Positions 15,057 to 37,863 of a DNA stretch of 64,000 bases are shown here, piece after piece (position 1 is the first letter of the stretch; each line of letters opens with the position of its first letter). The notes beneath the pieces are model-generated. The model was given only the letters and a program-made list of their open reading frames with translations. It was not told the origin of the DNA and did not search any database. Source of the DNA: a virus (Duplodnaviria; Caudoviricetes); the IMG/VR virus record IMGVR_UViG_3300022936_000009, positions 2,148-66,147 of that record. The stretch is one strand, 5' to 3'. A program made the translations under genes and the position numbers.

Positions 15057-15548
15057 TCAGCCGAGGGGGTCGCCTTCGGTGCTGTCGTAGTCGTCGTCGG
15101 GTTGGTCGAGATGCTCGACACCGATGCCCGTCAGCTTCTTCAAGCCGTCGACGGCGTTGGCCATTGCCCGCACGTCTTCGAGGCTGCCGGCAACGCGAAC
15201 ATTGTTCGCCAGCGTGAGCAACGGCGCGAGCGCCGCGCGCAGCGTGGGCGTCACCTCGCGCTCGGCGTCGAAGCGTCGCGCGGCATCGTCGCGCGCCTCG
15301 ACCGCGTTGCGCGCGGTCTGCGCGAGCTCCCGGTTGAGCTCGATGAGAAAGGCGCGCTCTTCGGCCTCGGCGCCCTTCATGCGAAAGAACGCCAGGCGGA
15401 TCGGATGTTGGTCGTCGGCGAAAGCCTGCACGACGAGGTCGCGCAGATAGTTGCCTTTCTCTGCGCGTTCGGTCGCAAGCTCCTGTCGGCGGTCGCTGCG
15501 CTCTTTGGTGATTTGTTCGGGCGTCTTCTTCTTCGTCGTCGTGCTCAT
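15057..15548 (-). CDS. Hypothetical coiled-coil protein
   Basis: 163 aa, starts MSTTTKKK, overlaps the DnaB stop. Confidence 0.7.
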   Translation of the reverse strand: MSTTTKKKTPEQITKERSDRRQELATERAEKGNYLRDLVVQAFADDQHPIRLAFFRMKGAEAEERAFLIELNRELAQTARNAVEARDDAARRFDAEREVTPTLRAALAPLLTLANNVRVAGSLEDVRAMANAVDGLKKLTGIGVEHLDQPDDDYDSTEGDPLG

Positions 15549-17089
15549 GCGTATTCTCCCGGCGGGGCGAGGCTCTCGAAACGAGGAACCTCTTTGTGGA
15601 AACGGAGGTCGATGGACCCGATCGGCCCGTTGCGGTTCTTCGCAACGATGACCTCGGCGATGCCAAGGCGGTCCTCGGGGCAGCGGTCTTTTGCGTAGTA
15701 TTCTTCGCGATAGATGAACGCGATGAGGTCGGCGTCTTGCTCGACGGCGCCGCTTTCTCGGATGTCGCTCATCATCGGCCGCTTGTCGGCGCGACTCTCC
15801 ACGCCACGGTTCAACTGCGACAACGCGCAGAACGTCGCGCCGGTCTCCATCGCAATGCCTTTGCAGCCACGGCTGATCCCCGACATCTGCGTCGTGCGGT
15901 TCTCTTCCGTGTCCTCTTCACCTGCGATGAGCTGCAGGTAGTCGACGACGATGAGGCCGAGCGGCGGCAGTCCTTGCCGCAACATCTTGCGGTGCTCCTC
16001 GCGGATCATGGCCTTGATCGCCGACATCGGCAGACCAGAACCACCGACGACCCAAATGGGCGAGTTCGCGATGGCGCCGGCGGCTTGTTCGAGCTGCCCG
16101 CGATCTGCAGGCGAGATGAACCGGCGCGTTGTCAGGTTCTCAATGTTGCTCTGCCCCTGGACGAGCTTGAGGGTCGCGGCCTCTCGTGTGACTTCGAGCG
16201 AAACGATGAGGACGCTCATCGGCTTGGAGCGGTGGAGGGCGACGCCGCGCGCGATGTCGAGCGCGAGCGACGTTTTGCCCATGCTCGGCCGCGCCGCGAC
16301 GACCCACAGGTCGCCGGGCTTGAGGAGCGAGTAGTTGTCGAGGTCGGGAAAGCCGGTGCTGTTGCCGACGACGACGCCGCCGTTGATCGGCAGCGCATCC
16401 ATCACAGAGGTCATGATGTCGCCGACGTGAACGAACGGCGAGGCGTGCCCGCGCGAGTCGACAGACGCGAGCTCGCCGACGACGCGGTCGACGATCTCGG
16501 CGAGGTTGCCACCGTGACGGCTGGCTTCGAGGCCCGTGAGCAGCGCCGCTTGCACGCCGCGCAGCTTCGATTTCTCGATGATCATCCGCACGCACTCGGG
16601 CACGCTGGCGGCCGTCAAGACGGCAGCTTCGAGCTTCGCCACGGCAGCAAAGCCGCCGACGGCGGCGAGGGCGCCGATGCGCTGCAGCTCGTCGCAAACG
16701 GTGAGCGTCTCGACGGCGTGGCCTGCCTCGTGGACGGCGATGATCGCCGACCAGATCCGCTGTCGAGCTTCCGAGTAGAAATCGCTGGCGGTGAGGCCCT
16801 GATCCTCGCAGGGCACGAGCGCGCCGTTGCCGTAGGAGAGGACCGCGCCGATCACCATCGCCTCGGCGTGCTCGACGTAGTGGTGTTGTTTGAGGCGGGC
16901 GTTGACGACGTCACGCGCCGTGACCTCGGCAAGGACGCGCGCGCGCTCGGTCTCGATCGAATTGAGCACCATCCCGAGCGGTACGAGGCCCTCCTCATCG
17001 CCGCCGTCGGTGTCTTCGTCGTCGTCGCGAAAGTCGGGGTCACGGGCGATCGTGACGTCGTCGTCGTCGCCGGGTTCGCGGTTGCTCAC
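15545..17089 (-). CDS. dnaB: Replicative DNA helicase (DnaB family)
   Basis: Walker A 'AARPSMGKT', 'IVVDYLQL', 'LSQLNRGVESRADKRPMMSDIRESGAVEQDAD', 'AKNRNGP'. Confidence 0.97.
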   Translation of the reverse strand: MSNREPGDDDDVTIARDPDFRDDDEDTDGGDEEGLVPLGMVLNSIETERARVLAEVTARDVVNARLKQHHYVEHAEAMVIGAVLSYGNGALVPCEDQGLTASDFYSEARQRIWSAIIAVHEAGHAVETLTVCDELQRIGALAAVGGFAAVAKLEAAVLTAASVPECVRMIIEKSKLRGVQAALLTGLEASRHGGNLAEIVDRVVGELASVDSRGHASPFVHVGDIMTSVMDALPINGGVVVGNSTGFPDLDNYSLLKPGDLWVVAARPSMGKTSLALDIARGVALHRSKPMSVLIVSLEVTREAATLKLVQGQSNIENLTTRRFISPADRGQLEQAAGAIANSPIWVVGGSGLPMSAIKAMIREEHRKMLRQGLPPLGLIVVDYLQLIAGEEDTEENRTTQMSGISRGCKGIAMETGATFCALSQLNRGVESRADKRPMMSDIRESGAVEQDADLIAFIYREEYYAKDRCPEDRLGIAEVIVAKNRNGPIGSIDLRFHKEVPRFESLAPPGEYA

Positions 17090-17952
17090 TTCGCCACCTT
17101 CGCAGCCCGGACCCACTTCGACGTCGTGAGGTCGAGGGTGTAGCCCTGTTTGTGCATGTGCTCGTCAGCCTGCGTCCAAACGTAGTCGAGAGGGATGGCG
17201 ACGGGGACGCCGTCGACCTTCACGGTCTTCACGTTGCGGAGCAGCGCGCCGTCGGCCTCGGTGGTCTTCTTCGGCATGCCGAGCGTGCCGAAGAGCATGA
17301 ACCACCGATCCGCGCTCTTCGCGACCGCGTCCCAATCGCAATGCTTCGCGCGGTCCGGCCAGTCGTCGTGCTTCATGCCGAGGATCGATTTGCACCACGC
17401 GCTCGGCTTGCCCCCGTCTCGGCAGTAGCGCACGAAGTAGCGGCGGCGCTGCGGCGTCACGCGCACCTGCGGCCGTCCCCACAGCTTGCCCCAGGCCTCG
17501 ACCATCGGCGTCAACATCGCGTCGGTGGGCGCCGCGAGACGGCCTTTCGGCAGCGCGTCGAAGGCGCCGTTGAGGATCTCGACGAACGTGGCGGGCGGCG
17601 GGACGATGAGGACTTCGGCGGGGCCGCGCTTCGGCGCCACGCCCGCGAGGCCGAGCAGGGCGCCGACGGCGGCGGCGTCGACGACGACCTTTTGATCGGT
17701 TTCGCTTGTGATGAGCTGCAGGTGCCGCAGGCGAGACAGTGCGTCTTCGCGCTCTTTCGGCAGCAGGGGGATGTCGCGCGGCTTCGTCGAGCACATTAGC
17801 GACGCCAGCGCGATGGCCGCGGTGGTGCTCTTGAGGGCGGCGGCGACGCCAGGGGAAAAAGCAGACTGCGAAAAGACGAGGTCGTGGATCGTCATCGGTG
17901 TCTCGGGGGAAAGAACCACCGTCGCCCGCGCGACGGTGGGAAGCAAAGTCAA
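17086..17952 (-). CDS. Putative replication initiator/organiser
   Basis: Sits between Bet and DnaB; Trp-rich helical C-terminal domain; function inferred from position only. Confidence 0.45.
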   Translation of the reverse strand: MTLLPTVARATVVLSPETPMTIHDLVFSQSAFSPGVAAALKSTTAAIALASLMCSTKPRDIPLLPKEREDALSRLRHLQLITSETDQKVVVDAAAVGALLGLAGVAPKRGPAEVLIVPPPATFVEILNGAFDALPKGRLAAPTDAMLTPMVEAWGKLWGRPQVRVTPQRRRYFVRYCRDGGKPSAWCKSILGMKHDDWPDRAKHCDWDAVAKSADRWFMLFGTLGMPKKTTEADGALLRNVKTVKVDGVPVAIPLDYVWTQADEHMHKQGYTLDLTTSKWVRAAKVAK

Positions 17953-20233: not shown

Positions 20234-20256
20234 GGGCGTGGTCCTTTGCTGTGTCG

Positions 20257-20293
20257 TTGTCGACACTTTGCCGGACGTTGCCGAAAGATGCAA
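20257..20293 (-). promoter_or_regulatory. Repeat-associated promoter, copy A
   Basis: TTGCAT-N17-CAAAGT with the conserved core CAACGTCCGGCAAAGTGTCGACAA. Confidence 0.75.
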
Positions 20294-20301
20294 GCGAAAC
20301 G

Positions 20302-20989: not shown

Positions 20990-21448
20990 TCAGATGAGGT
21001 GAGGGAGGTCCTGCATGAGGCGGCGGCGCTGCTGGACCTCGGCCGGCGGCGACTTCCAGACGTGGCCGTTGGCCTCGACGATCGTCATCTCGGCCGTGTT
21101 GCATTCGCACGGCGCGCGGTGCGCGGGATCGATCGCGAGGAAGAGATGGCGAGCTCGGCCCGGCTCGTGGTTGTCTTCTTCGGCATCGTTCATGCCGAAG
21201 GCCTTGCGGACGACGGCGACGTCGGCGTCGCTCGGGTGGCCGCCGATGCGCGAGACGGAGACGTGCCAGTGAGGCACGGTGCTTTTGTCGACGGCGCTTT
21301 TCATGCCGTCCATCCCGCTCAACACGCGCAAGCTGCCGAGCCGCCACCACGACGAGACCACTTCGATGCCCTCGCGCACGCGCGGCGACACGTTCGGCGT
21401 CGGCTCTCGTTTCCACATCGCGGTCTTGGGTCGCTTCTCTGTCGTCAT
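20990..21448 (-). CDS. Hypothetical phage protein
   Basis: 'HWHVSVSR..GHPSD', 'ARHLF' His-rich motifs. Confidence 0.7.
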   Translation of the reverse strand: MTTEKRPKTAMWKREPTPNVSPRVREGIEVVSSWWRLGSLRVLSGMDGMKSAVDKSTVPHWHVSVSRIGGHPSDADVAVVRKAFGMNDAEEDNHEPGRARHLFLAIDPAHRAPCECNTAEMTIVEANGHVWKSPPAEVQQRRRLMQDLPHLI

Positions 21449-21789
21449 CGTTGGGCCTCTCTCAACCACGGCGGCGCTTCCATGTCTGCACCGCGAATGA
21501 AGTTCACGCCGTCGGCGGTGAAGCGCCAGCCGCAGACGTCGCCACGGCGGTTGCGCACCTCTTCGAGGACGCCAAAGAGGACCATCTGCCCGCAGACGCG
21601 CCGTCGCGTGTCGAGGTCGGCGAGCTCGTGCACGCGACCCGCCGCGTGAGCGCGAGCGGCATAGACGTCGATGGCGGCGTCGAGGACCTCGACGCTTGCC
21701 TCCCTGCCGACCTCGGCCATGTGGCAGAGCATCAAGATCGCCAGGCGGTCTTTGCCCGACGTGAGGAAATCGAAGACGTCGACGCTCAT
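21445..21789 (-). CDS. Hypothetical protein, possibly winged-helix
   Basis: MSVDVFDFL...; coupled to the AlkB stop. Confidence 0.6.
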   Translation of the reverse strand: MSVDVFDFLTSGKDRLAILMLCHMAEVGREASVEVLDAAIDVYAARAHAAGRVHELADLDTRRRVCGQMVLFGVLEEVRNRRGDVCGWRFTADGVNFIRGADMEAPPWLREAQR

Positions 21790-22409
21790 CGCTTGACCTT
21801 GCGGAAGGTGAGGTTGATCCGCTGCATCCCCGTCAACGGCGACGTCAATGTCGGCAGCAGCTTTTTGATCCCGTGGAAGAGGTGCCGCGAGCGGCCGCCC
21901 TGCACGAGGAGGTCGCCCGACGACAACACGATCGGCGTGGTCTTGTCCTCGCGCTCCTCGCCGCCGATGAGGAACACCGCATCGGCGCCGATGGAGAGGG
22001 AGACGATCGGCGCGTCGAGATCCTCCTCGGTGCGGTCGATGTGGAGGCCGAGCGAGCCGCTCTCGTCGTAGTGGTTGATCAGCAAGCTGTCGGGCGTCAT
22101 CGGCGTGTGACCGACGCGGGCGAGGCCGCGCGCGCAGATGTCGAGCAGCTCGGCGGGGATCGCCGGCCACGGCTGCCCCGTCGTCGGGTGCTTGTCGATG
22201 TAGCGGTAGCCGCCGACGTCGGCCCACCAGCCCCACGCGCCCGCGCTGGCGACCTTGAGCTTGAGGGGCTGCCCCGACGCCGTCGACGGCACGCGCAGCG
22301 GCGCGGCCCTGCAGATGCCGCGCACGAGATCGATCACGGCGGCGACTTCGGCGCCGTCGAGGAAGCCGGGGACGTGGTGAAGGCCGATCGCCTCGTGCGC
22401 GCTCTTCAC
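21786..22409 (-). CDS. alkB: AlkB family Fe(II)/2-oxoglutarate dioxygenase
   Basis: 'PDSLLINHY...LGLHID..E.DLDAPIVSLSIG...F..GG', 'HGI', 'RINLTFR': HxD...H triad and 2OG-binding Arg residues intact. Confidence 0.93.
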   Translation of the reverse strand: MKSAHEAIGLHHVPGFLDGAEVAAVIDLVRGICRAAPLRVPSTASGQPLKLKVASAGAWGWWADVGGYRYIDKHPTTGQPWPAIPAELLDICARGLARVGHTPMTPDSLLINHYDESGSLGLHIDRTEEDLDAPIVSLSIGADAVFLIGGEEREDKTTPIVLSSGDLLVQGGRSRHLFHGIKKLLPTLTSPLTGMQRINLTFRKVKR

Positions 22410-22606
22410 GGCGTCACCTTGCAATAGGCTTCGCTCTCGACCCAGCACCGGCGCGTGCCGTGGCCGTCGTCAGTGCAGATCTCGACATCACGCCAATGGC
22501 GGTTGCAGCCCTGCGGATCACGTTCACACCCGGACCGCGAACCGGTGGCGCAGACCAGCACGAGGACGATGATCACAATGAAAATGTCGGAGTCGCCAGG
22601 CATCAC
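22406..22606 (-). CDS. Small Cys-rich secreted or membrane peptide
   Basis: N-terminal hydrophobic stretch, several Cys, overlaps both neighbours. Confidence 0.5.
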   Translation of the reverse strand: MMPGDSDIFIVIIVLVLVCATGSRSGCERDPQGCNRHWRDVEICTDDGHGTRRCWVESEAYCKVTP

Positions 22607-22905
22607 GACCTCGTCCGGCGGCCGGCTTTGCGCGCTTTCTTCGTGCGCTTGCGTTCTTCGCGCTTCGCTTTCGACGGACCAGGCAGTGGCATCGAGGGCC
22701 GTCGATATTCGACGCCGTCAAAGACCATCAACGGAACCGTCGCTGCGAGCAACGCGCGATGTCGCGCGAGCGACGCCGAGGCGGAGGGTCGGGGCTTGTC
22801 GTCGAAGATCCACGCCTTGCACTTTCTGCAGGTCGGATACTTCGTCGACGAGTCGAAGGGGTTTTCTGGCTCGGGAAGGGAGCAGGTGCAGCCTTGGGTC
22901 ATCAC
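22603..22905 (-). CDS. Small Cys-containing basic protein
   Basis: CxC and CxxC motifs; overlaps both neighbours. Confidence 0.55.
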   Translation of the reverse strand: MMTQGCTCSLPEPENPFDSSTKYPTCRKCKAWIFDDKPRPSASASLARHRALLAATVPLMVFDGVEYRRPSMPLPGPSKAKREERKRTKKARKAGRRTRS

Positions 22906-24803
22906 GCGGCCTCGTTGATTTTGTGTTGCGGCAGGTTCGCCGACACGAGCGCCGCCGCCATCTGCGGAACGACGCTGTTGCCGATCATGCGGATCTGCGC
23001 GGTCTTCGAGAGCTTGCCGTCGAGCTCAAGATCGTAGTCGACGGGGAAGCCTTGCGCGGTCGCGAGCTCGCGCGCGGTGAGCATCCTCATGCCGATGTCG
23101 ATGATGACGTGGTCGACGCCGTCGACGGTGACGAGGCCGAAGCGGTCGCGCGTCGTGACCGTCGACATCGGCGTGTCGAGGGTCTGCCCCGCTTTCTCGT
23201 TGCCGAAGTAGCGGATCAGGAAGGCGCGCACTTCGCCGATGTGCGTGCCGCCGGCGGTGACGGTGGGCATGGGGCCGTCGACGTCGACGCCGTCGCAGTT
23301 GTTGCGCAGCACCACGAGCGACGACGCTGCCGCCTCGGGGAACACCGGGCAGATGCAATCCCCCTGCTGAAACCCGGCGGAGGCCGCGCACGTCGGGCAC
23401 GGCGTCGGGGTGTCGTCTTCGCCTTCCTCTTCGATGACCCTTTCGTCGTACTGCGCGACGCGGTTGAAGAAGCGCAGGTCTCGCTTGGCGGCGCGGGTGT
23501 CGTCGTCGTCGTCGTCGCTGTCGAGGAGATGCTCGGGGTGCGGCGGGAAGTGGTCGACGTCGTCGTTGTCGGCGTATTCCTCGGGGTCAAAAGCGCCCTC
23601 ACCGACGGCCGCGATGTCGTCGCTCGTGCCGCGCGTCGGCCGCTTCGGCGGCGACGGCGCAAGCTCGGCGGTGACGAGCGCGTGGTGATCGACGGTGGTG
23701 ACGGTCGAGACAGGGCCGTCCAGGGGAACGCCGGGGCCCGTGTAGCCGCCGCCGTAGTGCTTCGCGAGGAAGGCGGCGACGACGGCGTGTTTGGCGCCAC
23801 CGGCGACGACGGTGCCGAGCGGCGCGCGGATGTCGAGCGACCGCGGCGCCTGCCCCTCGCGTTCGCCGTAGCCGGTCTGGATGAGCGTGGGCGCGATGAG
23901 CGCGAATTCTCCCCGGTGAGCGGTGGTGATGGTGCGCAGCGGCTCGTCGATGTCGTGGACGCGCGGGGCGCCGCTGTGCGTGATCGGAACGATGAAGGGG
24001 CGAGGGTTGTCGACGACAAAGCGTTGGATGCCGCGCGCGATGCGGGCAAGCGTCTTGTCGGCCAACGGCCGTTTGCGGCCGAAGATGGACGGGCAAGGGA
24101 TCGAGAAATCGATGCACTCGGCAGCGGTGCGGTACGGCAGCAGCACCTTGGCAGGAGGCGCGAAGAGGTCGCGCACGCGCGGCTCGTCGACCTTCGGCCC
24201 GTGCGTCGCCGCCGGCCACACGACAGGCTTTCCATCTCGGCGCGCGATCACGAAAAGGCGTTTTCTCGACGTCGGCGCGCCGTAGTCGCAGGCCTTGAGC
24301 TCGCGCCATTCGACGACGTAGCCGAGGCCTTTGAGGCGGCCGACCAGTTGCTTGAACGTGAGGCCCTTCTTTTTCGGATCGGGGGTGCCGTCTTCCAACA
24401 AGGGCCCCCACGTTTGGAATTCCTCGACGTTCTCAATGATGATGACCCAGGGCAGCACGAGCTTGGCCCACCACACGGTGACCCACGCCAGCGCGCGCAC
24501 GCCCTTCTCGACGGGCTTGCCGCCCTTGGCCTTGCTGAAATGCTTGCAGTCGGGGCTCGCCCACAACAAATCCACGCCGCCGATGTCGGCGACGTCGGTC
24601 GGGTTCACCTTCCAAACGCTTTCGCAGAAGTGCTTGCTCTGCGGGTGATTCGCGCTGTGCATCGCGATCGCTTCCTCGTCGTGGTTGATCGCCACGTCGG
24701 GGTGTCTGCCGAGCGCGAGAAAGATGCCCGTCGAGGCACCGCCGCCACCGGCGAAGCTGTCGACGATGAGGCCCGTGCGCTTCTGTGCGGTCTGTGTCGT
24801 CAT
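22902..24803 (-). CDS. DNA (cytosine-5)-methyltransferase
   Basis: Motif I 'DSFAGGGG', catalytic 'SPDCKHFS', motif VI 'ENVEEF', motif VIII 'R.RLFVIAR', motif X 'IGNSV.P'. Confidence 0.95.
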   Translation of the reverse strand: MTTQTAQKRTGLIVDSFAGGGGASTGIFLALGRHPDVAINHDEEAIAMHSANHPQSKHFCESVWKVNPTDVADIGGVDLLWASPDCKHFSKAKGGKPVEKGVRALAWVTVWWAKLVLPWVIIIENVEEFQTWGPLLEDGTPDPKKKGLTFKQLVGRLKGLGYVVEWRELKACDYGAPTSRKRLFVIARRDGKPVVWPAATHGPKVDEPRVRDLFAPPAKVLLPYRTAAECIDFSIPCPSIFGRKRPLADKTLARIARGIQRFVVDNPRPFIVPITHSGAPRVHDIDEPLRTITTAHRGEFALIAPTLIQTGYGEREGQAPRSLDIRAPLGTVVAGGAKHAVVAAFLAKHYGGGYTGPGVPLDGPVSTVTTVDHHALVTAELAPSPPKRPTRGTSDDIAAVGEGAFDPEEYADNDDVDHFPPHPEHLLDSDDDDDDTRAAKRDLRFFNRVAQYDERVIEEEGEDDTPTPCPTCAASAGFQQGDCICPVFPEAAASSLVVLRNNCDGVDVDGPMPTVTAGGTHIGEVRAFLIRYFGNEKAGQTLDTPMSTVTTRDRFGLVTVDGVDHVIIDIGMRMLTARELATAQGFPVDYDLELDGKLSKTAQIRMIGNSVVPQMAAALVSANLPQHKINEAA

Positions 24804-24805
24804 GC

Positions 24806-25207
24806 TCAAGCCCCGATCTTGAAAGTCGCGGTGGTGCCGCCGCAGGTGCGGCAGGTGATCTTCGCCGTGCCGCTCGCGACGGACACACCGGCGACGGTCT
24901 CGCCGCTGCCGAGGCAGTCGCCGCAGATGCTCGTCGTCGCCGACCACAGCTTTCGAGCGTCGGCGGCCTCGGCGCGCGACGTCATGACCTCGAAGCGCGG
25001 GCGCTTCTTCGTCTTGAAAGTGACCTTCACGGCGCCGGTCGGCTGGACCTTGCCGTTGACCTTCGCGAGGATCGACTCAAGGGCCACGACGGCGTCGTCG
25101 GCGTCGACGTCGGCACCGGCCTTGTTGCGGGCGGCGACTTCGATCCAGCCATAGGGGCAGGTGCGGGGGTCGAGGAGGGCCGTCGCGGTCGTGCTCGCGG
25201 CGGTCAA
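24806..25207 (-). CDS. Hypothetical protein with C-terminal CxxC...CxxC zinc ribbon
   Basis: Probable TTG start overlapping the upstream stop; 'CGDC...CRTC'. Confidence 0.55.
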   Translation of the reverse strand: MTAASTTATALLDPRTCPYGWIEVAARNKAGADVDADDAVVALESILAKVNGKVQPTGAVKVTFKTKKRPRFEVMTSRAEAADARKLWSATTSICGDCLGSGETVAGVSVASGTAKITCRTCGGTTATFKIGA

Positions 25208-25470
25208 CCGACACCGCCAGCAGCCTGCTCGGCGGGGGCGGTCGGTTTCGTCTTCGGCGGCGGCGCGTTGCCGCTGCGGATGTACTGCTGCAGCGAGCTT
25301 TCGAGCAGCATCCAGCCTCGGCGGCCTTTGAGGTTCTTGCCGGCGATGCGGCCCGCGCGCAGCTCGGCCTTGAGGAAGCGCGCCGTCAAGCCGCACAGCT
25401 TGTGCGCCTCGTCGGCGGAGATGAAGCGGTCCGGCACTGCCGGCGGCTTCTCGGTCTTTTTCGTGGCCAT
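25204..25470 (-). CDS. Excisionase-like HTH DNA-binding protein
   Basis: 'FISADEAHKLCGLTARFLKAELRAGRIAGKN...GWML..SSLQQYI'; GAGGG RBS. Confidence 0.75.
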   Translation of the reverse strand: MATKKTEKPPAVPDRFISADEAHKLCGLTARFLKAELRAGRIAGKNLKGRRGWMLLESSLQQYIRSGNAPPPKTKPTAPAEQAAGGVG

Positions 25471-25518
25471 GTCGCCCTCTTGGTGTGTTGTTGCTGTGCT
25501 GTTGTCGGTGCTTTGCTG

Positions 25519-25563
25519 ACCATACGACCTCGGCCCGGCAGCGCAAGGGAAACCGGGCCGAGG
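25519..25563 (-). promoter_or_regulatory. 11-bp-stem hairpin overlapping a candidate promoter for the HTH gene
   Basis: CCTCGGCCCGG/CCGGGCCGAGG inverted repeat; TTGCGC-N16-TATGGT on the minus strand; CA-rich leader follows. Confidence 0.45.
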
Positions 25564-25568
25564 CGCCG

Positions 25569-26126
25569 TCAGTGCACGAGCTTCTCGGGGTTGGTGATGA
25601 GGTCGGCGACGCTGCGGCCGGTCTCGCGGGCGATCTTGCAGATCGGGCAGTTGTCGGCGTCGAATTCCACGCCGCACGGTTCGGGGGCGGGCCGCTCCTG
25701 AAAGGTGCGCGCGGCGACGGCAACGGCGTCGTCGACGGCGAGGGCGCCCGTCGTCTTGCAGGCCGTGCAACGGAACATGACCCCGCCGGCAGCAAGCCGC
25801 GCCTGCAGCGCGCTGTCGTCGTCGGCGCAGTCGTCGCACAGCGCGCCAGGCACGCGCTCGCCTTCGATGAGCGGGCGGATGATCCCCGGCTGCACCGCCT
25901 TGCACTTCGTGCAGTCCTTGGCCGCGGCCACGGTCGGGTCGACGCCGATCACGAGCGGCTCGGTGAGGCCGTAGCGCATCGACTGGCAGGTGCTGCAGGT
26001 CCACACGGCGTTTCGGTTGCCGATGTCGACGTGCGTCGGGTTGTTGCTCGGCCCCGAGCAGGCGGGGCAGAAGCAGGGGCGGGGGTTGAGGCCGAGGCGA
26101 GGGTGCATCACGAGACGGTCGACCAT
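25569..26126 (-). CDS. Multi-CxxC zinc-ribbon protein
   Basis: Six CxxC pairs in 185 aa; GAAGGA RBS. Confidence 0.7.
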   Translation of the reverse strand: MVDRLVMHPRLGLNPRPCFCPACSGPSNNPTHVDIGNRNAVWTCSTCQSMRYGLTEPLVIGVDPTVAAAKDCTKCKAVQPGIIRPLIEGERVPGALCDDCADDDSALQARLAAGGVMFRCTACKTTGALAVDDAVAVAARTFQERPAPEPCGVEFDADNCPICKIARETGRSVADLITNPEKLVH

Positions 26127-26824
26127 GGGGCGGTTCCTTCCTGATTCGGTTCGTAGCGGGCGGGCTTGTCGTCGCCGTCGAGGCGGCCCCACGCGCCCCA
26201 CCCTGGACGGCGGGCGCGCGAGAAGAGCTCGACGGCATCGATGGGGGCGGCGCGCAGGCTGCCGGCGGCGATGGCTTCGATGCGGCGCCAGGCCGCCTGC
26301 GGCTTCGTCGAATGCGCGCCCTCGCGGTCACTGTAGATGATGGACCGCTGTCGGTTGCGGGTCTGCGGGACGCGGATGGTGGGGGCGTCGCCTCGTCGAC
26401 AGAGGAACAAAAATTCATGTTCCACGCGGACCCACTGCCCCTGCCCGAGCTTCTGCACCGGCTTAAAAAGGCCCTCGTCGGTGAGGTCGAGCTCGGCCTC
26501 GACGCCGTCGGGCAGCGTGACGTCGAGGTTGTCGACCGCCGTGACCTTCGCCCACACCAACGACGAGCAGATGCGCAGGTTGAGGCGGTTGGCGAGGGCG
26601 TGGGCGTCGCCGTCGCAGACGGCGAGCGTCGTTGCCCACATGAAACCAAGCATCGGCTCCACGTCGTTCCAGACCGGCGACATACGGATCACCTTCGAGA
26701 TGCCGTCGACGTCGAGGGTTTCATATTGCGCGTTGGCGCCCTTGCCGCCGCCGCCGTCGTCGGCGTTCCAGTTGGGATCGAAGACGCGCACGAGAGGTTG
26801 TCGGGTGGGGATGAGGTCGCTCAT
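26108..26824 (-). CDS. MT-A70 family (N6-adenine) methyltransferase
   Basis: 'DPNW', 'FMWAT', 'LVWAK', 'G.G.W.R..HEFLFLCRRG', 'HSTKP', 'VELFSR..RPGW..WG'. Confidence 0.85.
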   Translation of the reverse strand: MSDLIPTRQPLVRVFDPNWNADDGGGGKGANAQYETLDVDGISKVIRMSPVWNDVEPMLGFMWATTLAVCDGDAHALANRLNLRICSSLVWAKVTAVDNLDVTLPDGVEAELDLTDEGLFKPVQKLGQGQWVRVEHEFLFLCRRGDAPTIRVPQTRNRQRSIIYSDREGAHSTKPQAAWRRIEAIAAGSLRAAPIDAVELFSRARRPGWGAWGRLDGDDKPARYEPNQEGTAPWSTVS

Positions 26825-27471
26825 CGCGAGGCCTCGACGATCGCGGCGACGACGGGATCGTGGTGGCCTGCGCGTCCTGCGGTGATCGTGCGCCGGCGGA
26901 TGGCGGCCATGAGCGCCGCGGCCGGCACGTTCCCGAGCTCGTCGAAGGCGCGGGCGACAGCGTCGTCGGCCGCCTTCGCCTTCTCCTCTTCGTCGATGGA
27001 GGCGCAGCAGATCGCCGCCCACGCCCGGACATCGGCGGGCAGGGCGCGGATGTAGCGTTCAACGTCGTCAAAGCTGACGTCGGCAACGGGTACGGTCGGG
27101 GCGGAGATGCTGGCATCGAGGACCATGGCGGGGGCTTTCTCGGCGACGACGCCGGCGGCGATGAGGTTGAGGCGCGTGGTGCTGTAGTTGGTGCGGACCT
27201 GGACGAGCTGCACGCCTGCAGCCTTGGCAGCGTCGCGGGCGTGGTGGCTCTCGTTGTGTGAGGTCATGTCGGAATTGAGCAGGACGAGGTCGACGTGCTT
27301 GGGGATGCGCTGGCCGGCGAAAAGGTCGGCGGCGACGACGTCGACGACGATGCCGTCGGCGTCGAGCTTTTCGCGCAGGCGCGCGAGCGTCGCGCCGGGT
27401 GGTCCGCCGATCCACATCGCGCGGCGCTTGGTCGTTTCGGTGGCGGTCGTGGCTTTTGCTGTCTGGTTCAT
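26821..27471 (-). CDS. DUF2325-like (flavodoxin-like) domain protein
   Basis: 'WIGG...LREKL...G', 'DLVLL.SD.TSH..SHHARDAAKAAGVQLV' resembles DUF2325. Confidence 0.55.
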   Translation of the reverse strand: MNQTAKATTATETTKRRAMWIGGPPGATLARLREKLDADGIVVDVVAADLFAGQRIPKHVDLVLLNSDMTSHNESHHARDAAKAAGVQLVQVRTNYSTTRLNLIAAGVVAEKAPAMVLDASISAPTVPVADVSFDDVERYIRALPADVRAWAAICCASIDEEEKAKAADDAVARAFDELGNVPAAALMAAIRRRTITAGRAGHHDPVVAAIVEASR

Positions 27472-27745: not shown

Positions 27746-28249
27746 TCAGTCCAGTTGCTGCACGAGCGTGAGCACGATCGCCCCCGCCGTGTTCTTCGAG
27801 GCGGCGATCGTCCAGCGCTGGCCGAGCGAGGACACGCCAGCGGGCTGGCCGATGTACAGAAAGCGGTTGCTCGTGGGGTTGCTGCCGTTCTTCCGGGTGC
27901 GCACCTCCGCCGGCCAGTCGGTGAGGCTCTTGCCCGCGCCACCGCCGGCCCCTGGACGAATGGCCCCGAGGCCTCGCAGGACGGCCTGCAGCGTGTCGGC
28001 GATCGGCGACCCGGCATCGCAGCGGCGAAGAGCTCGGCGAAGCGCGGCGCCCCGGATGGTGCTCGGCAAACGGGCAACCTCGGCGGTGACGGCGGCGACG
28101 ACGTTGACGCCGTCCTGCCGAGCGAGGTCGTAGGCGGCGGCGATCGCCCGGGCGTGGCTGTCGGTGGCCTTGCGGGCCGTGGTGGCTTTGGCGTCGACGG
28201 CGGCGTCGAGGTTGAGCGTTTGCTGCGCGTGCTGCGGCTTCGTCTTCAT
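27746..28249 (-). CDS. Hypothetical protein
   Basis: MKTKPQ...; GGGAG RBS. Confidence 0.65.
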   Translation of the reverse strand: MKTKPQHAQQTLNLDAAVDAKATTARKATDSHARAIAAAYDLARQDGVNVVAAVTAEVARLPSTIRGAALRRALRRCDAGSPIADTLQAVLRGLGAIRPGAGGGAGKSLTDWPAEVRTRKNGSNPTSNRFLYIGQPAGVSSLGQRWTIAASKNTAGAIVLTLVQQLD

Positions 28250-28281
28250 GGGTCGTGCTCCCGGAAGAGGTGGGGGAAAGA

Positions 28282-28305
28282 GGCGCCGCCCTCGCGGGCG
28301 GCGCC
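28282..28305 (-). terminator. Intrinsic terminator
   Basis: Perfect 10-bp stem GGCGCCGCCC/GGGCGGCGCC followed by TCTTT on the minus strand. Confidence 0.65.
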
Positions 28306-28311
28306 GGTCGA

Positions 28312-28563
28312 TCATGCCTTGTTGTACGACCCGCAGTTGGGGCAACGGGTGCCGCGACGTCCCGTCAGGTTGGTCGGGCAGACGCATGCGCCGCGTCCGT
28401 GGCTCGCGCCCTGCCAGTAGCAGGCGTCGAATCCGGCTGCGCGGCTGACGTCGAGGGCGCCGCCCGCCTTCCCGTCCGCCTTGCCAGCGCTGTAGGCCGC
28501 CGCCATCTGCCGGGTCCAGCCGCCGCCGAGGGATACGGGCGGAACGTCGATTTTCGTGCTCAT
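28312..28563 (-). CDS. Small zinc-ribbon protein
   Basis: CxC...CxxC; first gene after promoter copy B. Confidence 0.6.
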   Translation of the reverse strand: MSTKIDVPPVSLGGGWTRQMAAAYSAGKADGKAGGALDVSRAAGFDACYWQGASHGRGACVCPTNLTGRRGTRCPNCGSYNKA

Positions 28564-28617
28564 TGTTTTCTCGCTTCCGACACGGTGCAACGCGGGATTG
28601 CGTTGGATGCTGTGCCG

Positions 28618-28654
28618 TTGTCGACACTTTGCCGGACGTTGCCGGACAATGCAA
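28618..28654 (-). promoter_or_regulatory. Repeat-associated promoter, copy B
   Basis: TTGCAT-N17-CAAAGT plus the conserved core. Confidence 0.75.
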
Positions 28655-28665
28655 GCGATGAAACG

Positions 28666-28699
28666 AAAAAAGCCCGCGCCTTCCGAAGAAAGAGCGGGC
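28666..28699 (-). terminator. Intrinsic terminator upstream of copy B
   Basis: GCCCGC...GCGGGC stem followed by TTTTTT on the minus strand. Confidence 0.6.
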
Positions 28700-28719
28700 C
28701 AGTGCATTGGGAAGCCGGA

Positions 28720-29007
28720 TCAGGTCTTGCGCAAGTCGTCGATGGGCGCGGCCGTCTTCGGCCGATCTCGCCAGGCGGACCGGCATGCGGGGCGCCCGCA
28801 GATCGCGCCGTGGGTCACGGACGAGCTCGCGCCCTCGGCGTCGAGCATCACCGCCCCCGGCCGACAGGCTGCAGAGCCGTCAGCTAGAAGCGCGTGAAGA
28901 ACCGGGGGACGGCCGGAACCGCGGCCGGTTCGGGTGCACGTAGCGTCGCGCACAGCAAACAGCGGTTGGCCACGGGCGAGCGAAGCACGGACCTCGTCGA
29001 GGGTCAT
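28720..29007 (-). CDS. Hypothetical protein
   Basis: 95-aa ORF; boundaries uncertain because alternative frames overlap. Confidence 0.4.
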   Translation of the reverse strand: MTLDEVRASLARGQPLFAVRDATCTRTGRGSGRPPVLHALLADGSAACRPGAVMLDAEGASSSVTHGAICGRPACRSAWRDRPKTAAPIDDLRKT

Positions 29008-29019
29008 AGGGAAGGCTCT

Positions 29020-29631
29020 TCACTTTCGGGAAGGTGATGCGGAGCACTGAAACCGAGAGGCGGACGTCGTCGACGCCACCAATCGAGGTGAACCGGTCAA
29101 TGCGTCGACCGTTGACGCTGATGTAGTGGAGTCGTCCGGGAATGATGGCCATGTCGGCAAACCCTCTTCGATGAGCAGCGCGGTGGTGATCGTATCGGGC
29201 GTCGTCGCCGACGGGTAGAGGGCAACCTCGACGTCGCTGACGTCGTCGTGGCGGCCGGTGGCGAGGTGGTCGATAACAGCGCGCCGGGACGACGCCGACA
29301 ACGCCGCTTCGAGCCGATGCACGACGCTGCGCCACCACTGCCCGGCGAAGTCGCTTTGCGCGCGGGCCCACCGGGCGTTGGCGTAGTCGAGGACCGCGAG
29401 CATGCGCGCGCGACGCGGGCCCTTTCGCTGTCGCCGTGCGTCGGCGAGCTGCGCCGACGTCGCCGCGTTCACGAGGCGGATTCGCGGGTGGCAATGCGTC
29501 GACGACCACGGCTCAATTCCGTGCTGCAGCCGGTATTTCTGGACGTTCTTCCGCGTCGTGCCGAGGGCAATGGCGATCCTGCGGTCCGACATCTGCCCCC
29601 ACCGCGCCGCGCTGTAGTCGGCGCGCTTCAT
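29020..29631 (-). CDS. Hypothetical protein with N-terminal HTH
   Basis: 'WGQMSDRRIAIALGTTRKNVQKYR..HGI'; 3' end uncertain. Confidence 0.55.
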   Translation of the reverse strand: MKRADYSAARWGQMSDRRIAIALGTTRKNVQKYRLQHGIEPWSSTHCHPRIRLVNAATSAQLADARRQRKGPRRARMLAVLDYANARWARAQSDFAGQWWRSVVHRLEAALSASSRRAVIDHLATGRHDDVSDVEVALYPSATTPDTITTALLIEEGLPTWPSFPDDSTTSASTVDALTGSPRLVASTTSASRFQCSASPSRK

Positions 29632-30116
29632 TCGCCACGCAAGACGTCGTCGACGATGCGGGTGATCACGGTCTCGGCGGTCTCGTTGCCGTCGCCCTGG
29701 CGCCCTTGGTGGAAAGCCTCGGCGCAGGCCTTGAGCATCGCCGCGCGGATGCCGGGGGCGGCTTCGACGTCGACGACGCTGCCGCCGATGGCGTGATCCA
29801 TCGCGCGTTTGACGTCGATGACCTCTTGGTTGGGCCACACGGCGGGGACGCAGCAGACCCACGGGCGCGCGCGGCGGATGAGGATGGTGAGGCGATCGAC
29901 CTGATCCTGCAGCAGCCCGTCGTCGTCGGTGGCGTGGTCGACGAGACCCATGCGCTTCCGAGCGTCGGCGTAGCGTTCGTCGTGGAAGCCGACGGCGGCA
30001 CCGCGCCGACCACGGCAGCAGGTGAAGGGCGCCGCGTTGCACCGACGACAGGGCTCGGCAGCCGCTCGCGCGTTGCGCGCTCGCTCGGCCATGTCTTTGT
30101 CTTTCCACGACGTCAT
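29628..30116 (-). CDS. Hypothetical protein with zinc-finger-like motif
   Basis: 'CRRCNA.PFTCC...FHDER'. Confidence 0.6.
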   Translation of the reverse strand: MTSWKDKDMAERARNARAAAEPCRRCNAAPFTCCRGRRGAAVGFHDERYADARKRMGLVDHATDDDGLLQDQVDRLTILIRRARPWVCCVPAVWPNQEVIDVKRAMDHAIGGSVVDVEAAPGIRAAMLKACAEAFHQGRQGDGNETAETVITRIVDDVLRGE

Positions 30117-30118
30117 GG

Positions 30119-30265
30119 TCAGGCCTCGCAATCGTCGACGAGGCCGGCAACGGCGCGGGTGCGGTCGGCGGGCCAATCGAGCTCGATCATCGCGCGGGCG
30201 ATCGAGTCGGCGACGGGGAAGGTGCGGCCGTCTTCGACGGTGACGGTGGACGTGAGGGCGTGCAT
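30119..30265 (-). CDS. Small hypothetical protein (48 aa)
   Basis: AGGAG RBS; MHALTSTVTVEDGRTFPVADSIARAMIELDWP...; below the ORF-track cutoff. Confidence 0.5.
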   Translation of the reverse strand: MHALTSTVTVEDGRTFPVADSIARAMIELDWPADRTRAVAGLVDDCEA

Positions 30266-30290
30266 CGCGAGGCTCCTGCAGCGGTGGTGA

Positions 30291-30503
30291 TCAGGCGGCG
30301 GCGTGGACGTTGCCGTTGAAGGCGGCGCGCATGCGCTCGACGGCGGCGGCGAGGCGGGCGCGGGTTTCGGCGGTGTCGCCGTCGGTGCAGACGGCGCCGA
30401 TCGCGCGTTGGAATTCGCGGTCTGCCTCCTCGACAGTGGGGGTGACGGTCACGAGGTAGGTGACGCCGTCGTCGCCGACAAAGGTGCGGGTCTTCGTGCT
30501 CAT
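30291..30503 (-). CDS. Small hypothetical protein
   Basis: MSTKTRTF...; GAGG RBS. Confidence 0.55.
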   Translation of the reverse strand: MSTKTRTFVGDDGVTYLVTVTPTVEEADREFQRAIGAVCTDGDTAETRARLAAAVERMRAAFNGNVHAAA

Positions 30504-30511
30504 GGCCTGCC

Positions 30512-30748
30512 TCAAAACGTGGGGGTGATGTCGACTTGCGTGCGGTCGGCGCGGCCGCTGACGGCCTTGTGCTCGACGACGACGCCGGTGGCGCGCTTCC
30601 ACACGAGCCGCACGGTCGCGAGCGCCTCGGCCTCGGTGACGACGCCGCCGACGGGGACGATGCCCAACAGCGATCGAGCGGCGCCACGGAAGACGAGGAA
30701 GGCGCCGAGGGCTTTGAAGGTGGGGCGGATCGTCTCGGCGCTGTACAT
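30512..30748 (-). CDS. Small hypothetical protein
   Basis: AGGAG RBS; first gene after promoter copy C. Confidence 0.6.
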   Translation of the reverse strand: MYSAETIRPTFKALGAFLVFRGAARSLLGIVPVGGVVTEAEALATVRLVWKRATGVVVEHKAVSGRADRTQVDITPTF

Positions 30749-30772
30749 GGCGGCTCCTGCGGTGGCGTACTC

Positions 30773-30809
30773 TTGTCGACACTTTGCCGGACGTTGCCGG
30801 CAAAGTCAA
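30773..30809 (-). promoter_or_regulatory. Repeat-associated promoter, copy C
   Basis: TTGACT-N17-CAAAGT; contains the dyad ACTTTGCCGG-N6-CCGGCAAAGT. Confidence 0.78.
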
Positions 30810-30817
30810 ACAAGGAA

Positions 30818-31306
30818 TCACTGCGCCTTGTTTTTTTCCCACGCGGCGACGAGGCGGGCGCGTTCGGCCGCGCACTGCTCACCGCTCTGCACGTAGACGT
30901 GGAGATAGAAATTGCAGTTAAAATAGTCGCTCATCACGTCGCTTTTATCCATGTGGTACGGGGCGACGATGGCGTTGAGCTTCTCGCGCACGGCTTCGCA
31001 GAGCGGCGTCGTATCGGGAAGGGCGCGGTAGTCCTCGGAGCGAAAGAAGTCGGTCGGGTTGGCGATCTGGTGCCAGAGGCGCGAGACATCGAACATGTTG
31101 CCCGCGAGGTCGAGGCAACGGATCGTGAGGCTGCAGCCGCCGGCGTACTTCGACACCTTGACCGAGATCTTCCCCTCGGGGATGTCGCCGGCCTTCTGCG
31201 CTTCCTTGATCTCGCCACGCACACGGGCCGCGATCTCGGTGATCGGGAGGTCGGTGAGCTTGACGGTGACGGCGGGGACGAGCTTGAGGACGGTGTTGGT
31301 GGTCAT
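30818..31306 (-). CDS. LPD29-like (large polyvalent protein-associated) domain protein
   Basis: 'IAARVR.EIK...KISVKVSKYAGGCSL.I', 'D.MSDYF...FY' resemble LPD29. Confidence 0.6.
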   Translation of the reverse strand: MTTNTVLKLVPAVTVKLTDLPITEIAARVRGEIKEAQKAGDIPEGKISVKVSKYAGGCSLTIRCLDLAGNMFDVSRLWHQIANPTDFFRSEDYRALPDTTPLCEAVREKLNAIVAPYHMDKSDVMSDYFNCNFYLHVYVQSGEQCAAERARLVAAWEKNKAQ

Positions 31307-31334
31307 GGTGTCGGCTCCGGTTGTTGTCGTGCGC

Positions 31335-31403
31335 TTGTCGACACTTTGCCGGACGTTGGCGGACATGTCAAGCGTCGCGCCGATGTTTTTCTAATCTTTT
31401 TTC
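31335..31403 (-). promoter_or_regulatory. Main leftward promoter (copy D) with A-rich UP element
   Basis: TTGACA (31371-31366)-N17-CAAAGT; A-tracts upstream on the minus strand. Confidence 0.82.
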
Positions 31404-31471: not shown

Positions 31472-31720
31472 ATGTAACGTGTTGAGCTCTCGCCCCTCGG
31501 GGCCACAAAACGTTTGTGAGGCCCGATCTCAACCAGGGCCGATCCGCCGAACCGGGAAGCGTTATCGTCGACGACGGCCGTCAAGATCCCCGGATGCCGT
31601 AGAGGAGAACACGCCCGAGCTCGGGCAGACGACCCTCGAACCGACCTGCAGGAGGCGCAACGCGAGCGCCACCAGCGTGCAGATCTGGAAAACCCCGCCT
31701 CACCGCGGGGTTTTCTTTTT
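31472..31720 (+). ncRNA. Putative ~250-nt structured RNA or leader
   Basis: Lies between the rightward promoter and a terminator; four hairpins; no credible ORF. Confidence 0.45.
31689..31720 (+). terminator. Intrinsic terminator
   Basis: AAAACCCCGC-N6-GCGGGGTTTT followed by CTTTTT. Confidence 0.85.
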
Positions 31721-31724
31721 GCTG

Positions 31725-31756
31725 TTGTTGACACTTTGCCGGACGTAGGCGACAAC
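31725..31756. promoter_or_regulatory. Repeat copy E (variant)
   Basis: TTGTTGACACTTTGCCGGACGT; no -35 on the minus strand, but creates TTGACA on the plus strand. Confidence 0.6.
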
Positions 31757-31832
31757 CGTCGTGCTCGGTAGCGCCGAGTGGTGGCACGGGGGCGGCGGCA
31801 TGGTGCCGCCGTCTTTGTCAAAGGTGGATGCG

Positions 31833-33287: not shown

Positions 33288-33512
33288 ATGCAAAACGCTG
33301 CCGCCCTCGAACGCCTCGCCATCCTCACCGAGCAACGCGCGATGCTCCGCCGCTACGGGTGGGGTGGGGCGCCGGCGCTGGATCGGGACATCGCGGCCGC
33401 CGAAGTGCTGGCAAACGCACAGCAAGGGGATAGGCTGACGACGACGACGCCGACCACGACGGCGTCGAGGAGCCAAGCCGATGCCGTCGAAGAAGCCGCC
33501 CACGCCTGCTGA
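33288..33512 (+). CDS. Small hypothetical protein
   Basis: GGAAGG RBS, 74 aa. Confidence 0.45.
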   Translation: MQNAAALERLAILTEQRAMLRRYGWGGAPALDRDIAAAEVLANAQQGDRLTTTTPTTTASRSQADAVEEAAHAC

Positions 33513-34359: not shown

Positions 34360-34371
34360 GGACGACGACAG

Positions 34372-36309: not shown

Positions 36310-36584
36310 TGGCGGCTCAAGAGAGCTCCCTGCGCCGCGCCATCGGCGCCGTCGCTGTCGCCGGCATGTCGTTGGCCATCACCTTGGCGGCCTGCAAGCT
36401 CATGGGCCTCGGCGAGGTCGATGACCTCCCGTGGTCGCTGATCCTGCTGCCCCTCGTCGGCTTCACCGTCGGCGTGTTCCTCCTCGTCGCCCTCGTGATG
36501 GCGGTGATCGGGATGATGGCCCTCATGATCCTCATCGACGACCACCGCGCCGACAAGGCGCGCAAGGGCGACGCCGTCGCTTGA
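36309..36584 (+). CDS. Small 2-3 TM membrane protein
   Basis: 'LAACKLMGL...LPWSLILLPL'. Confidence 0.65.
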   Translation: MAAQESSLRRAIGAVAVAGMSLAITLAACKLMGLGEVDDLPWSLILLPLVGFTVGVFLLVALVMAVIGMMALMILIDDHRADKARKGDAVA

Positions 36585-36590
36585 CCGCCG

Positions 36591-36635
36591 GGCGATCCAC
36601 GATCACAGCAACGTGATCGTGGATCGCCTTTCTTC
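36591..36635 (+). terminator. Intrinsic terminator with 16-bp perfect stem
   Basis: GGCGATCCACGATCAC-N6-GTGATCGTGGATCGCC followed by TTTTCTT. Confidence 0.9.
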
Positions 36636-36699
36636 GATACTGCCCCCGGCTTTCCGCGCACCTCTGGCGCTGCAACTGCAATAAAGAATGTGAGCGAAC

Positions 36700-37059: not shown

Positions 37060-37274
37060 AGCGGGACGCCCCGAGCGCGCCTCTCTGGCCGCCCTACTAC
37101 AACAAGGGTCTGCGGACAGACGCGCCCGTGTGGTGGTGGATCTTTTGGGCCGTCCGCAACCCTCACGGCCTCGTCGACGGCTACAGCCATCGCGGTTGGC
37201 GGGTGAGCCGCATCCACAAGGTGCGGCCCGCCCTCGTTTTGGAGGCCTCTCGGCTCCCTTGGGGCACACCATGA
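37056..37274 (+). CDS. Small Trp-rich hypothetical protein
   Basis: ATGA coupling. Confidence 0.5.
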   Translation: MKRDAPSAPLWPPYYNKGLRTDAPVWWWIFWAVRNPHGLVDGYSHRGWRVSRIHKVRPALVLEASRLPWGTP

Positions 37275-37847: not shown

Positions 37848-37863
37848 CGACCAACGAGGCCCC

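Follow-up and report, generated by a model that had tools for sequence, protein, structure and literature searches.

The AlkB and methylase gene chain

We analysed a 64,000-nucleotide stretch of viral DNA (hereafter the window, in which all positions are given), comprising bases 2148–66147 of the 66,147-bp IMG/VR record IMGVR_UViG_3300022936_000009. On its minus strand the window carries genes for an AlkB dioxygenase (21786–22409, 207 amino acids), a C5-cytosine methylase (22902–24803, 633 amino acids) and an MT-A70 methylase (26108–26824, 238 amino acids). That these three genes lie within 5 kb of one another on one strand had been claimed in the initial annotation of this DNA, and Pfam (PF13532, PF00145 and PF05063) and PHROG agree with it, the annotated interval of 21786–26824 running exactly from the AlkB stop to the MT-A70 start. 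To our knowledge, DNA methyl-removing enzymes are almost unknown in phages, whereas phage DNA methylases are common, and the occurrence of an AlkB and two DNA methylases together in a single translationally coupled unit, in a mid-sized phage, appears to be new.

Because of the high GC content (65–70% throughout the window, 67% for the contig overall), genes were called by third-position GC (GC3) and start-codon context. About 11 minus-strand genes form a chain that runs from ∼27,470 down to 21,445, with stop/start overlaps of 4 nt (ATGA, GTGA, TTGA) or 1 nt, and two further open reading frames (ORFs) continue to 20302. The overlapping chain opens with a 216-amino-acid DUF2325-like protein (26821–27471, minus strand, as are all genes of the chain), which has the ribosome-binding site AGGAG upstream. 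Between the MT-A70 methylase and the C5-methylase lie a 185-amino-acid protein that is zinc-ribbon-like at best (25569–26126; an Atlas search gave weak zinc-ribbon leads only), an 88-amino-acid helix-turn-helix protein of excisionase/AlpA-like type (25204–25470; PF12728 HTH_17, E 2e-4; phrog_1840 and phrog_66), and a 133-amino-acid protein with a zinc-finger-like C-terminus containing CxxC (24806–25207; weak PF00684 match, E 0.002; phrog_22148; TTGA overlap). Two small ORFs called from the GC3 frame plot separate the C5-methylase from AlkB, one of 99 amino acids (22603–22902) joined by start/stop overlaps and one of 65 amino acids (22406–22603), whose stop codon overlaps the AlkB start (GTGA). 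A 114-amino-acid ORF (21445–21789) follows, its ATG overlapping the AlkB stop (ATGA). No family match was found for the 185-, 99-, 65- and 114-amino-acid proteins in Pfam, PHROG or, where it was run, NCBIfam.

Upstream of the chain is a promoter-like 51-nt repeat (28608–28658, minus strand; TTGCAT, 17 nt, CAAAGT; family D3), and a second copy, 92% identical to the first (20247–20297, minus strand), fronts the next unit, which encodes YqaJ, RecT and DnaB. No strong minus-strand terminator was found between these two copies. The earlier proposal of a single operon is well supported by these features, since the 4-nt and 1-nt overlaps, the lack of a strong internal terminator and the bracketing promoter-like repeats all argue that AlkB, the C5-methylase and the MT-A70 methylase would be co-transcribed. 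Proximity is another matter: by our calculation, the chance that three independently placed early genes fall within 5 kb of the ∼18-kb early region is ∼0.19 (3w^2−2w^3, with w = 5/18). The clustering of the three genes is by itself within chance, and the presence of an AlkB in a phage is the unusual part.

The 51-nt repeat occurs in five copies in all (20247–20297, 28608–28658, 30763–30813, 31325–31375 and 31715–31765; 61–100% identical), which split the early region into units.

Identity and active site of the phage AlkB

The AlkB ORF is open from 21786 to 22448, with GTG at 22409 as its likeliest start. The protein matches PF13532 over the whole profile (E 4e-47), and this is its sole Pfam family at E ≤ 0.01; no match to the Tet_JBP domain was found, and a TET/JBP-like identity was rejected on these grounds. 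Among sequences in the PDB, the E. coli AlkB (EcAlkB) chains, such as 2fd8 and 3khc, are the closest (E 5e-35; identity ∼36–45%), aligning without gaps around the active site, followed by mammalian ALKBH1 as the second-best match group (E 1e-16). The iron triad HxD...H is kept, with H136, D138 and H192 aligning with EcAlkB H131, D133 and H187, and the counterparts of RxxxxxR, N120/Y122, W69 and Y76 of the E. coli enzyme are likewise conserved. The triad, R210 and R216 (RxxxxxR), N125 and Y127 (the N/Y pair that binds 2-oxoglutarate) and the lid residue W74 are invariant across 22 aligned homologues.

An AlphaFold model built from an 18-sequence alignment (pLDDT, the predicted local distance difference test score, 93) was compared with known structures by Foldseek. 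It superimposes on EcAlkB over ∼199 residues with a template modelling (TM) score of 0.92–0.94 and a root-mean-square deviation of 1.6 Å, an overlap that includes both the beta-helix core and the nucleotide-recognition lid, while ALKBH1 chains reach a TMt of only 0.39–0.42. Among the structural matches listed were PDB 4nii and 4nig, which we take to be tied to the N6-methyladenosine (m6A) activity of the EcAlkB D135I mutant. Judged by its sequence and predicted structure, the phage protein is certain to be an Fe(II)/2-oxoglutarate dioxygenase of the EcAlkB fold (group 1A-like) with a complete active site; the initial annotation had called it catalytically intact, and the invariant residues and the fit of the model agree. 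It differs from its E. coli counterpart in its setting, an early operon as against the Ada regulon, and in one residue of the substrate pocket.

A threonine in the specificity pocket

D135 of EcAlkB contacts the exocyclic amine of 1-methyladenine (1mA) and 3-methylcytosine (3mC) and gives the enzyme its preference for these two lesions. In the phage AlkB this position is occupied by T140, which aligns with EcAlkB D135 and with S235 of ALKBH1, the register being H+4 in all (H131+4 and H231+4 in the two reference enzymes). The initial annotation, which did not mention this residue, had proposed three roles for the phage enzyme (repair of damage from the phage's own methylases, oxidation of its own methyl marks into a new modification, and erasure of host-imposed methylation), and the threonine bears on which of them are possible.

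Threonine or serine at this position marks a distinct group of AlkBs. The 120 best homologues have Asp in 80, Asn in 21, Thr in 13, Ser in five and Gly in one; the 18 Ser/Thr (S/T) proteins coincide with the 18 nearest relatives of the phage enzyme, the remaining 102 being reported as D or N type. These S/T proteins form a clade in a quick tree (Shimodaira–Hasegawa-like approximate likelihood ratio test, SH-aLRT, 99), which places the phage AlkB apart from EcAlkB, and the lid of the clade also differs otherwise from that of EcAlkB, for example in GWW(A/S)D. Two further viral AlkBs described below, L003 (T type) and L004 (S type), have long branches in the same tree and do not group with the main S/T clade, and a third, at the edge of a provirus (L002), is of D type. 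Asp is found at 78 of 80 metagenomic loci and at all six readable alphaproteobacterial chromosomal loci. The S/T type nevertheless makes up a large and diverse group, accounting for 73 of the best 150 proteins when a profile was run against 1.84 billion representatives, a share inflated because that profile was itself built from S/T sequences.

Work on other AlkB enzymes gives some idea of what the substitution may mean. In EcAlkB, D135A costs more than 95% of 1mA repair and brings a gain of 1-methylguanine (1mG) repair (PMC2800194). Saturation mutagenesis of the same enzyme found D135S, and still more D135T, to be the best demethylases of 1-methylguanosine (m1G) on tRNA; both still remove 1-methyladenosine (m1A; >90%) and 3-methylcytidine (m3C; ∼50%) from tRNA, D135I acquires m6A demethylation, and Ser at the D135 position was already noted in some species (PMC7968990). 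In ALKBH1, which demethylates N6-methyladenine (N6-mA) in unpaired DNA, S235A is harmless whereas S235D and S235E abolish the activity, the small residue making room for N6-mA (PMC7054317).

The phage AlkB thus shares residue type, position and scaffold with the engineered D135T and D135S enzymes used as demethylases in tRNA sequencing, but those are laboratory mutants, whereas the phage substitution is natural and fixed in its clade. With ALKBH1 it shares a small hydroxyl residue at the D135-equivalent position, but ALKBH1 has Flip0/Flip1 elements and an N-terminal extension, and its structural overlap with the phage protein is poor. Because the restricting Asp is replaced by Thr, the phage enzyme may have a wider substrate range than textbook EcAlkB, one that would take in 1mG and 3-methylthymine (3mT) besides 1mA and 3mC. 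Also apparently new is a phage AlkB from a natural subfamily with a Ser/Thr pocket, a feature that parallels both the engineered D135T/S enzymes and ALKBH1; the locus bears on whether the pocket change selected for m1G by engineers, and used for N6-mA by ALKBH1, had already arisen in nature.

AlkB domains with this pocket also occur within larger proteins. Four metagenomic giant proteins of 2057–2548 amino acids (P0193, P0204, P0212 and P0223) carry a T-type AlkB domain, one of them together with an ADP-ribosyltransferase exoenzyme (toxin) domain and one with an IrrE/M78 peptidase domain; outside the AlkB domain, these giant proteins had no match in phage or plasmid collections. P0165 and P0198 combine an AlkB of T/S type with a YpsA/DprA-like SLOG domain, and in P0149 a T-type AlkB is joined to DUF488. 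A D-type AlkB is fused to a Y-family polymerase (IMS) in P0282.

The two methylases

The C5-methylase lies in an ORF of 22902–24947, with ATG at 24803 as its likely start. It matches phrog_116 (E 3e-99) and, in two pieces that flank a variable region of ∼400 amino acids, PF00145 (E 4e-29). Motif I (FxGxG) is present as FAGGGG (residues 17–22), as are ENV of motif VI and GNSV of motif X, while motif VIII (QxRxR) reads TSRKR, its Q being replaced. The catalytic cysteine of motif IV aligns with that of PPCQ in PDB 3g7u within the local sequence S-P-D-C-K. This SPDC variant is common to the phage homologues (from Burkholderia and Pseudomonas phages and IMG/VR contigs) and is therefore a family trait, not a lesion. 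By these features the enzyme is best described as an orphan phage-type C5-cytosine DNA methyltransferase, in which the ∼400 residues between motifs VIII and IX/X might accommodate more than one target-recognition domain. The record was also searched for methylases of PF01555 and PF02086, and none was found.

Like the window enzyme, seven other members of the phrog_116 family (L177, L178, L111, L137, L139, L160 and L162) have S-P-D-C-(K/T)-H-F-S in place of P-C-Q, and T or S in place of the motif VIII Q. One of them, Pseudomonas phage vB_PstS-pAN (L178), carries its C5-methylase in an early operon with a 3′–5′ exoribonuclease and a phosphohydrolase, and an SRAP (SOS-response-associated) peptidase lies a few kb off, making this another methylase neighbourhood with a DNA-damage gene.

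The MT-A70 protein scores 40.4 bits against PF05063 (cut-off 23.9) over profile positions 84–171 only, the C-terminal half, and matches phrog_359 with an E of 8e-21. It belongs to a small subfamily, with just 12 homologues at E ≤ 0.001 in 5.8 billion proteins, and no solved structure related to it by sequence was found. Its catalytic tetrapeptide is DPNW, where the family pattern is (D/N/S)PP(W/Y/F); D16, P17 and W19 are invariant in the 12 homologues, the third position being N, P, M or A, and a GGGG(K/R)GA loop is invariant in the subfamily. We regard it as a putative beta-class N6-adenine DNA methyltransferase that is probably active.

The nearest relatives found are two phage contigs of 65% GC (L179 and L180; IMGVR_UViG_3300021093_000236 and 3300044295_000355), which have in common with the window a large tail protein, RecT (44% identity) and the MT-A70 gene (40%); no AlkB and no C5-methylase was found in either contig. 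Two other phages (G011 and G012), one of them estimated to be 100% complete, have a more distant MT-A70-like gene and a C5-methylase, with no AlkB.

Rarity of AlkB in phages and its association with methylases

A tblastn search of 50,697 deposited phage records with the AlkB sequence gave one weak match, in the 595-kb megaphage LR756511, whose AlkB resembles ALKBH2/3 and has Glu in the pocket. Motif scans of 2.9 million IMG/VR contigs gave three AlkB loci (L002–L004), of which L002 was set aside as a viral AlkB: it is of D type and lies at the edge of a provirus, so that it probably belongs to the host. Among PHROG families, the phage AlkB matches phrog_21963 and phrog_30585 weakly (E 5e-12 and 3e-5). 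Phage AlkB-like genes are thus already known, both from PHROG families and from jumbo phages, and a virus AlkB beside a methyltransferase is known from plant RNA viruses. The jumbo-phage AlkB-like 2-oxoglutarate dioxygenases are, like the present one, phage-encoded and sporadic, and it has been suggested that they reset methyl marks (Iyer et al., 2021; PMC7824862); the present source differs in being no jumbo phage but a siphovirus-like contig of ∼66 kb. The earlier remark that a phage AlkB linked to two methylases is unusual therefore stands as regards the rarity of AlkB in phages, although AlkB-like phage genes and the idea of mark resetting were already in print.

The other two viral loci differ in their surroundings. 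L003 (IMGVR_UViG_3300047175_000169) is a 5.8-kb viral fragment (1–5816) with a resolvase, a large terminase and a 448-amino-acid PF01555 methylase; its T-type AlkB lies ∼0.4 kb from the methylase, in divergent orientation, and runs off the contig end. In L004 (IMGVR_UViG_3300044640_002221, a 136,923-bp contig) an ORF at 3–12311, cut by the contig end and more than 4100 amino acids long, combines an S-type AlkB (residues 712–898) with DUF4326 and a PIF1-like helicase, and looks like a polyvalent phage protein; no methylase was found in the 137-kb contig. A further S-type AlkB lies on a 4.2-kb fragment (L011) that otherwise contains small ORFs without assigned function and no methylase. A DNA methylase is thus adjacent in two of four informative S/T-type AlkB contexts (the window and L003), against a background of ∼10%, which is suggestive but carries no statistical weight.

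Viewed from the methylase side, AlkB is almost never a partner. A survey of the kind proposed in the initial annotation showed no enrichment: a homologue of the C5-methylase is carried by 586 phage records, only one record carries any AlkB, and among phage DnaB-centred loci 7 of 80 have such a homologue and 0 of 80 an AlkB. Scanning GTDB species genomes with the clade motifs gave seven alphaproteobacterial loci, none sharing another gene with the window; the C5-methylases of these genomes lie on separate contigs or no closer than 23 kb. No AlkB–methylase fusion was found, the search for longer proteins being weak evidence on this point. Taken together, the comparative data lend weak support to a functional link between AlkB and the methylases.

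Proposed function of the phage AlkB

To our minds there is about an even chance that the phage AlkB is a broad-range direct-reversal repair enzyme for phage single-stranded DNA (ssDNA). Its activity, substrates, expression timing and biological role we infer as follows. The enzyme would act on single-stranded nucleic acid, where, with the help of Fe(II) and 2-oxoglutarate, it would hydroxylate methyl groups carried by the base-pairing face of the bases, the methyl leaving as formaldehyde. It would be made early, from the same transcript as both methyltransferases and just upstream of the ssDNA-generating exonuclease/RecT/DnaB genes, and would clear replication-blocking lesions from the phage genome. 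Such lesions would come from damage accumulated in the virion, from cellular S-adenosylmethionine and from alkylating agents, with 3mC made by the phage's own C5-methylase as one source among several. A share for this last source is plausible, but nothing in the comparative data singles it out as the cause of the gene's presence.

Repair is favoured by the intact active site, the EcAlkB fold, the place of the gene ahead of YqaJ, RecT and DnaB, and the m1A and m3C removal that EcAlkB D135T/S retain. In addition, group 1A AlkBs restore the survival of methylated ssDNA phage in alkB mutants (PMC2790896), and other AlkB domains of S/T type have become joined to modules related to ssDNA or repair, namely the SLOG domains and the PIF1-like helicase of the giant L004 ORF. 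Several observations weigh against it. The phage AlkB scores below the NCBIfam equivalog cut-offs (180 versus 267 bits for NF011930, 135 versus 231 for TIGR00568); the Thr in the pocket may just as well point to another main substrate; and nearly all phages, among them at least 585 of the records with a homologous C5-methylase, are without AlkB. In addition, Iyer et al. take the sporadic occurrence of AlkB in phages to argue against plain repair (PMC7824862). Should the protein prove to be only a generic repair enzyme, it would still offer a natural broad-range AlkB for tRNA and RNA sequencing and an example of phage-borne alkylation repair.

A narrower explanation is that AlkB is a dedicated clean-up partner, kept because the C5-methylase, which is possibly multispecific, makes toxic 3mC on a 67% GC genome. 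The biochemical premise that C5-methylases make 3mC, put forward as background in the initial annotation, is borne out by M.SssI, a C5-methylase that in E. coli leads to AlkB-dependent mutagenesis and sensitivity to methyl methanesulfonate (bioRxiv 10.64898/2026.01.24.701492). The locus fits too, in that AlkB starts ∼0.5 kb downstream of the C5-methylase in the same overlapping chain, a second viral T-type AlkB (L003) lies close to a methylase, and the nearest MT-A70-bearing relatives, which have no C5-methylase, also have no AlkB. The surveys speak against such a dependence, as do the two phages that combine an MT-A70-like gene and a C5-methylase with no AlkB, the lack of a methylase in the S-type contexts L004 and L011, and the failure to find a fusion; moreover, Thr at D135 roughly halves m3C removal by the E. 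coli enzyme. We consider this explanation unlikely, and the locus offers a compact, testable case of whether by-product damage from methylases matters for a virus.

Alternatively, AlkB might act on methyl marks themselves, removing N6-mA (or oxidising 5-methylcytosine) on unpaired DNA, either paired with the MT-A70 methylase or directed against host adenine methylation. T140 occupies the position of ALKBH1 S235, where a small residue accommodates N6-mA, S/T is fixed in 18 of 18 clade members, an N6-adenine methylase gene is predicted in the same operon, and the m6A activity of EcAlkB D135I shows that a change at this position can bring such a gain; the same idea has been proposed for the jumbo-phage AlkBs. 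However, the fold and nucleotide-recognition lid are those of EcAlkB and not of ALKBH1, the documented gain of D135T/S is m1G and not m6A, and a writer and an eraser of one mark, if co-expressed, would cancel each other out. We know of no established prokaryotic or viral eraser of N6-mA or of broad range. In our view a role as eraser or oxidiser is rather improbable, and we hold to be doubtful in like measure the more general proposal that S/T-pocket AlkBs form a natural subfamily tied to mobile elements, which acts mainly on substrates other than 1mA/3mC and here would perform N6-mA (unpaired DNA) or m1G/m3T-type demethylation, as a writer–eraser pair with MT-A70 or by stripping host adenine methylation.

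As for oxidation of the phage's own marks into a new modification, the second role in the initial annotation, the operon gives it no footing, and a hypermodification reading was rejected for now. Phage pairs of TET/JBP enzymes with C5-methylases do resemble the window in having a 2-oxoglutarate dioxygenase near a C5-methylase, but the window enzyme is of the AlkB family and not TET-like, and no glycosyltransferase or other tailoring or hypermodification enzyme was found among the operon proteins in Pfam, PHROG, NCBIfam and Atlas searches.

The repair reading must also be set against the thought that AlkB counters alkylation of phage nucleic acid by the host or environment, or demethylates RNA (tRNA m1G/m1A) so as to reshape translation. 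The giant T-type proteins with a toxin or IrrE-type peptidase domain have an architecture typical for conflict proteins (see also PMC5512222), and no better m1G demethylase on tRNA is known than D135T (PMC7968990). Plant RNA viruses have functional RNA-repairing AlkB domains (PMC544882; see also PMC2553587); the replicases of plant Flexiviridae resemble the present locus in that a virus AlkB, thought to protect the viral genome, adjoins a methyltransferase domain (PMC544882), but these are RNA viruses in which AlkB is a polyprotein domain and the neighbouring methyltransferase a capping enzyme. The giant proteins, for their part, match phage and plasmid collections only in the AlkB domain, and the window AlkB is a stand-alone early gene and not part of an injected protein. 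Nor are we aware of a defence system that places methyl groups on the base-pairing face of phage DNA, which counts against a counter-measure, and altogether such a role seems to us quite improbable.

That AlkB is a horizontally acquired passenger, placed beside the methylases by accident, is scarcely credible: three early genes are expected within 5 kb ∼19% of the time and the association is not kept in the relatives found, but the nearest cellular homologues are only ∼45% identical, the GC3 of 0.92 is the phage's own, codon overlaps embed the gene in the chain, and the catalytic residues are all kept across a clade with an SH-aLRT of 99.

The source phage and its gene content

The record is classed as linear, with a CheckV completeness estimate of 73%. 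It encodes a tape-measure protein (634–5013) and a portal (55125–56834), both assigned by PHROG matches, a large terminase (53491–55146) and DnaB helicase (15545–17164; phrog_19), the last grouped with the YqaJ exonuclease (PF09588) and RecT (PF03837) in the unit just downstream of the AlkB unit. From these genes we conclude that the source is a tailed phage; the contig is siphovirus-like. No nucleotide match to it was found among the 50,697 deposited phage genomes. Nine tested ORFs of 182–376 amino acids, in 27746–31366 (minus strand) and 33439–42098 (plus strand), have no Pfam family at E ≤ 0.001, and much of the phage is therefore uncharacterised sequence.

Its relationships to known phages are distant. 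DnaB homologues in IMG/VR are at most 38% identical, and no portal among the deposited phages exceeds 40% identity with that of the window, the top match (39.8%) being a faecal-metagenome phage and the named matches (36.5–38.7%) all Arthrobacter phages. The closest cellular AlkBs, like the genome loci matched by the clade motifs, are alphaproteobacterial. A single tRNA gene, tRNA-Asn (GTT), lies at 57748–57822 on the minus strand, opposite to the surrounding head genes.

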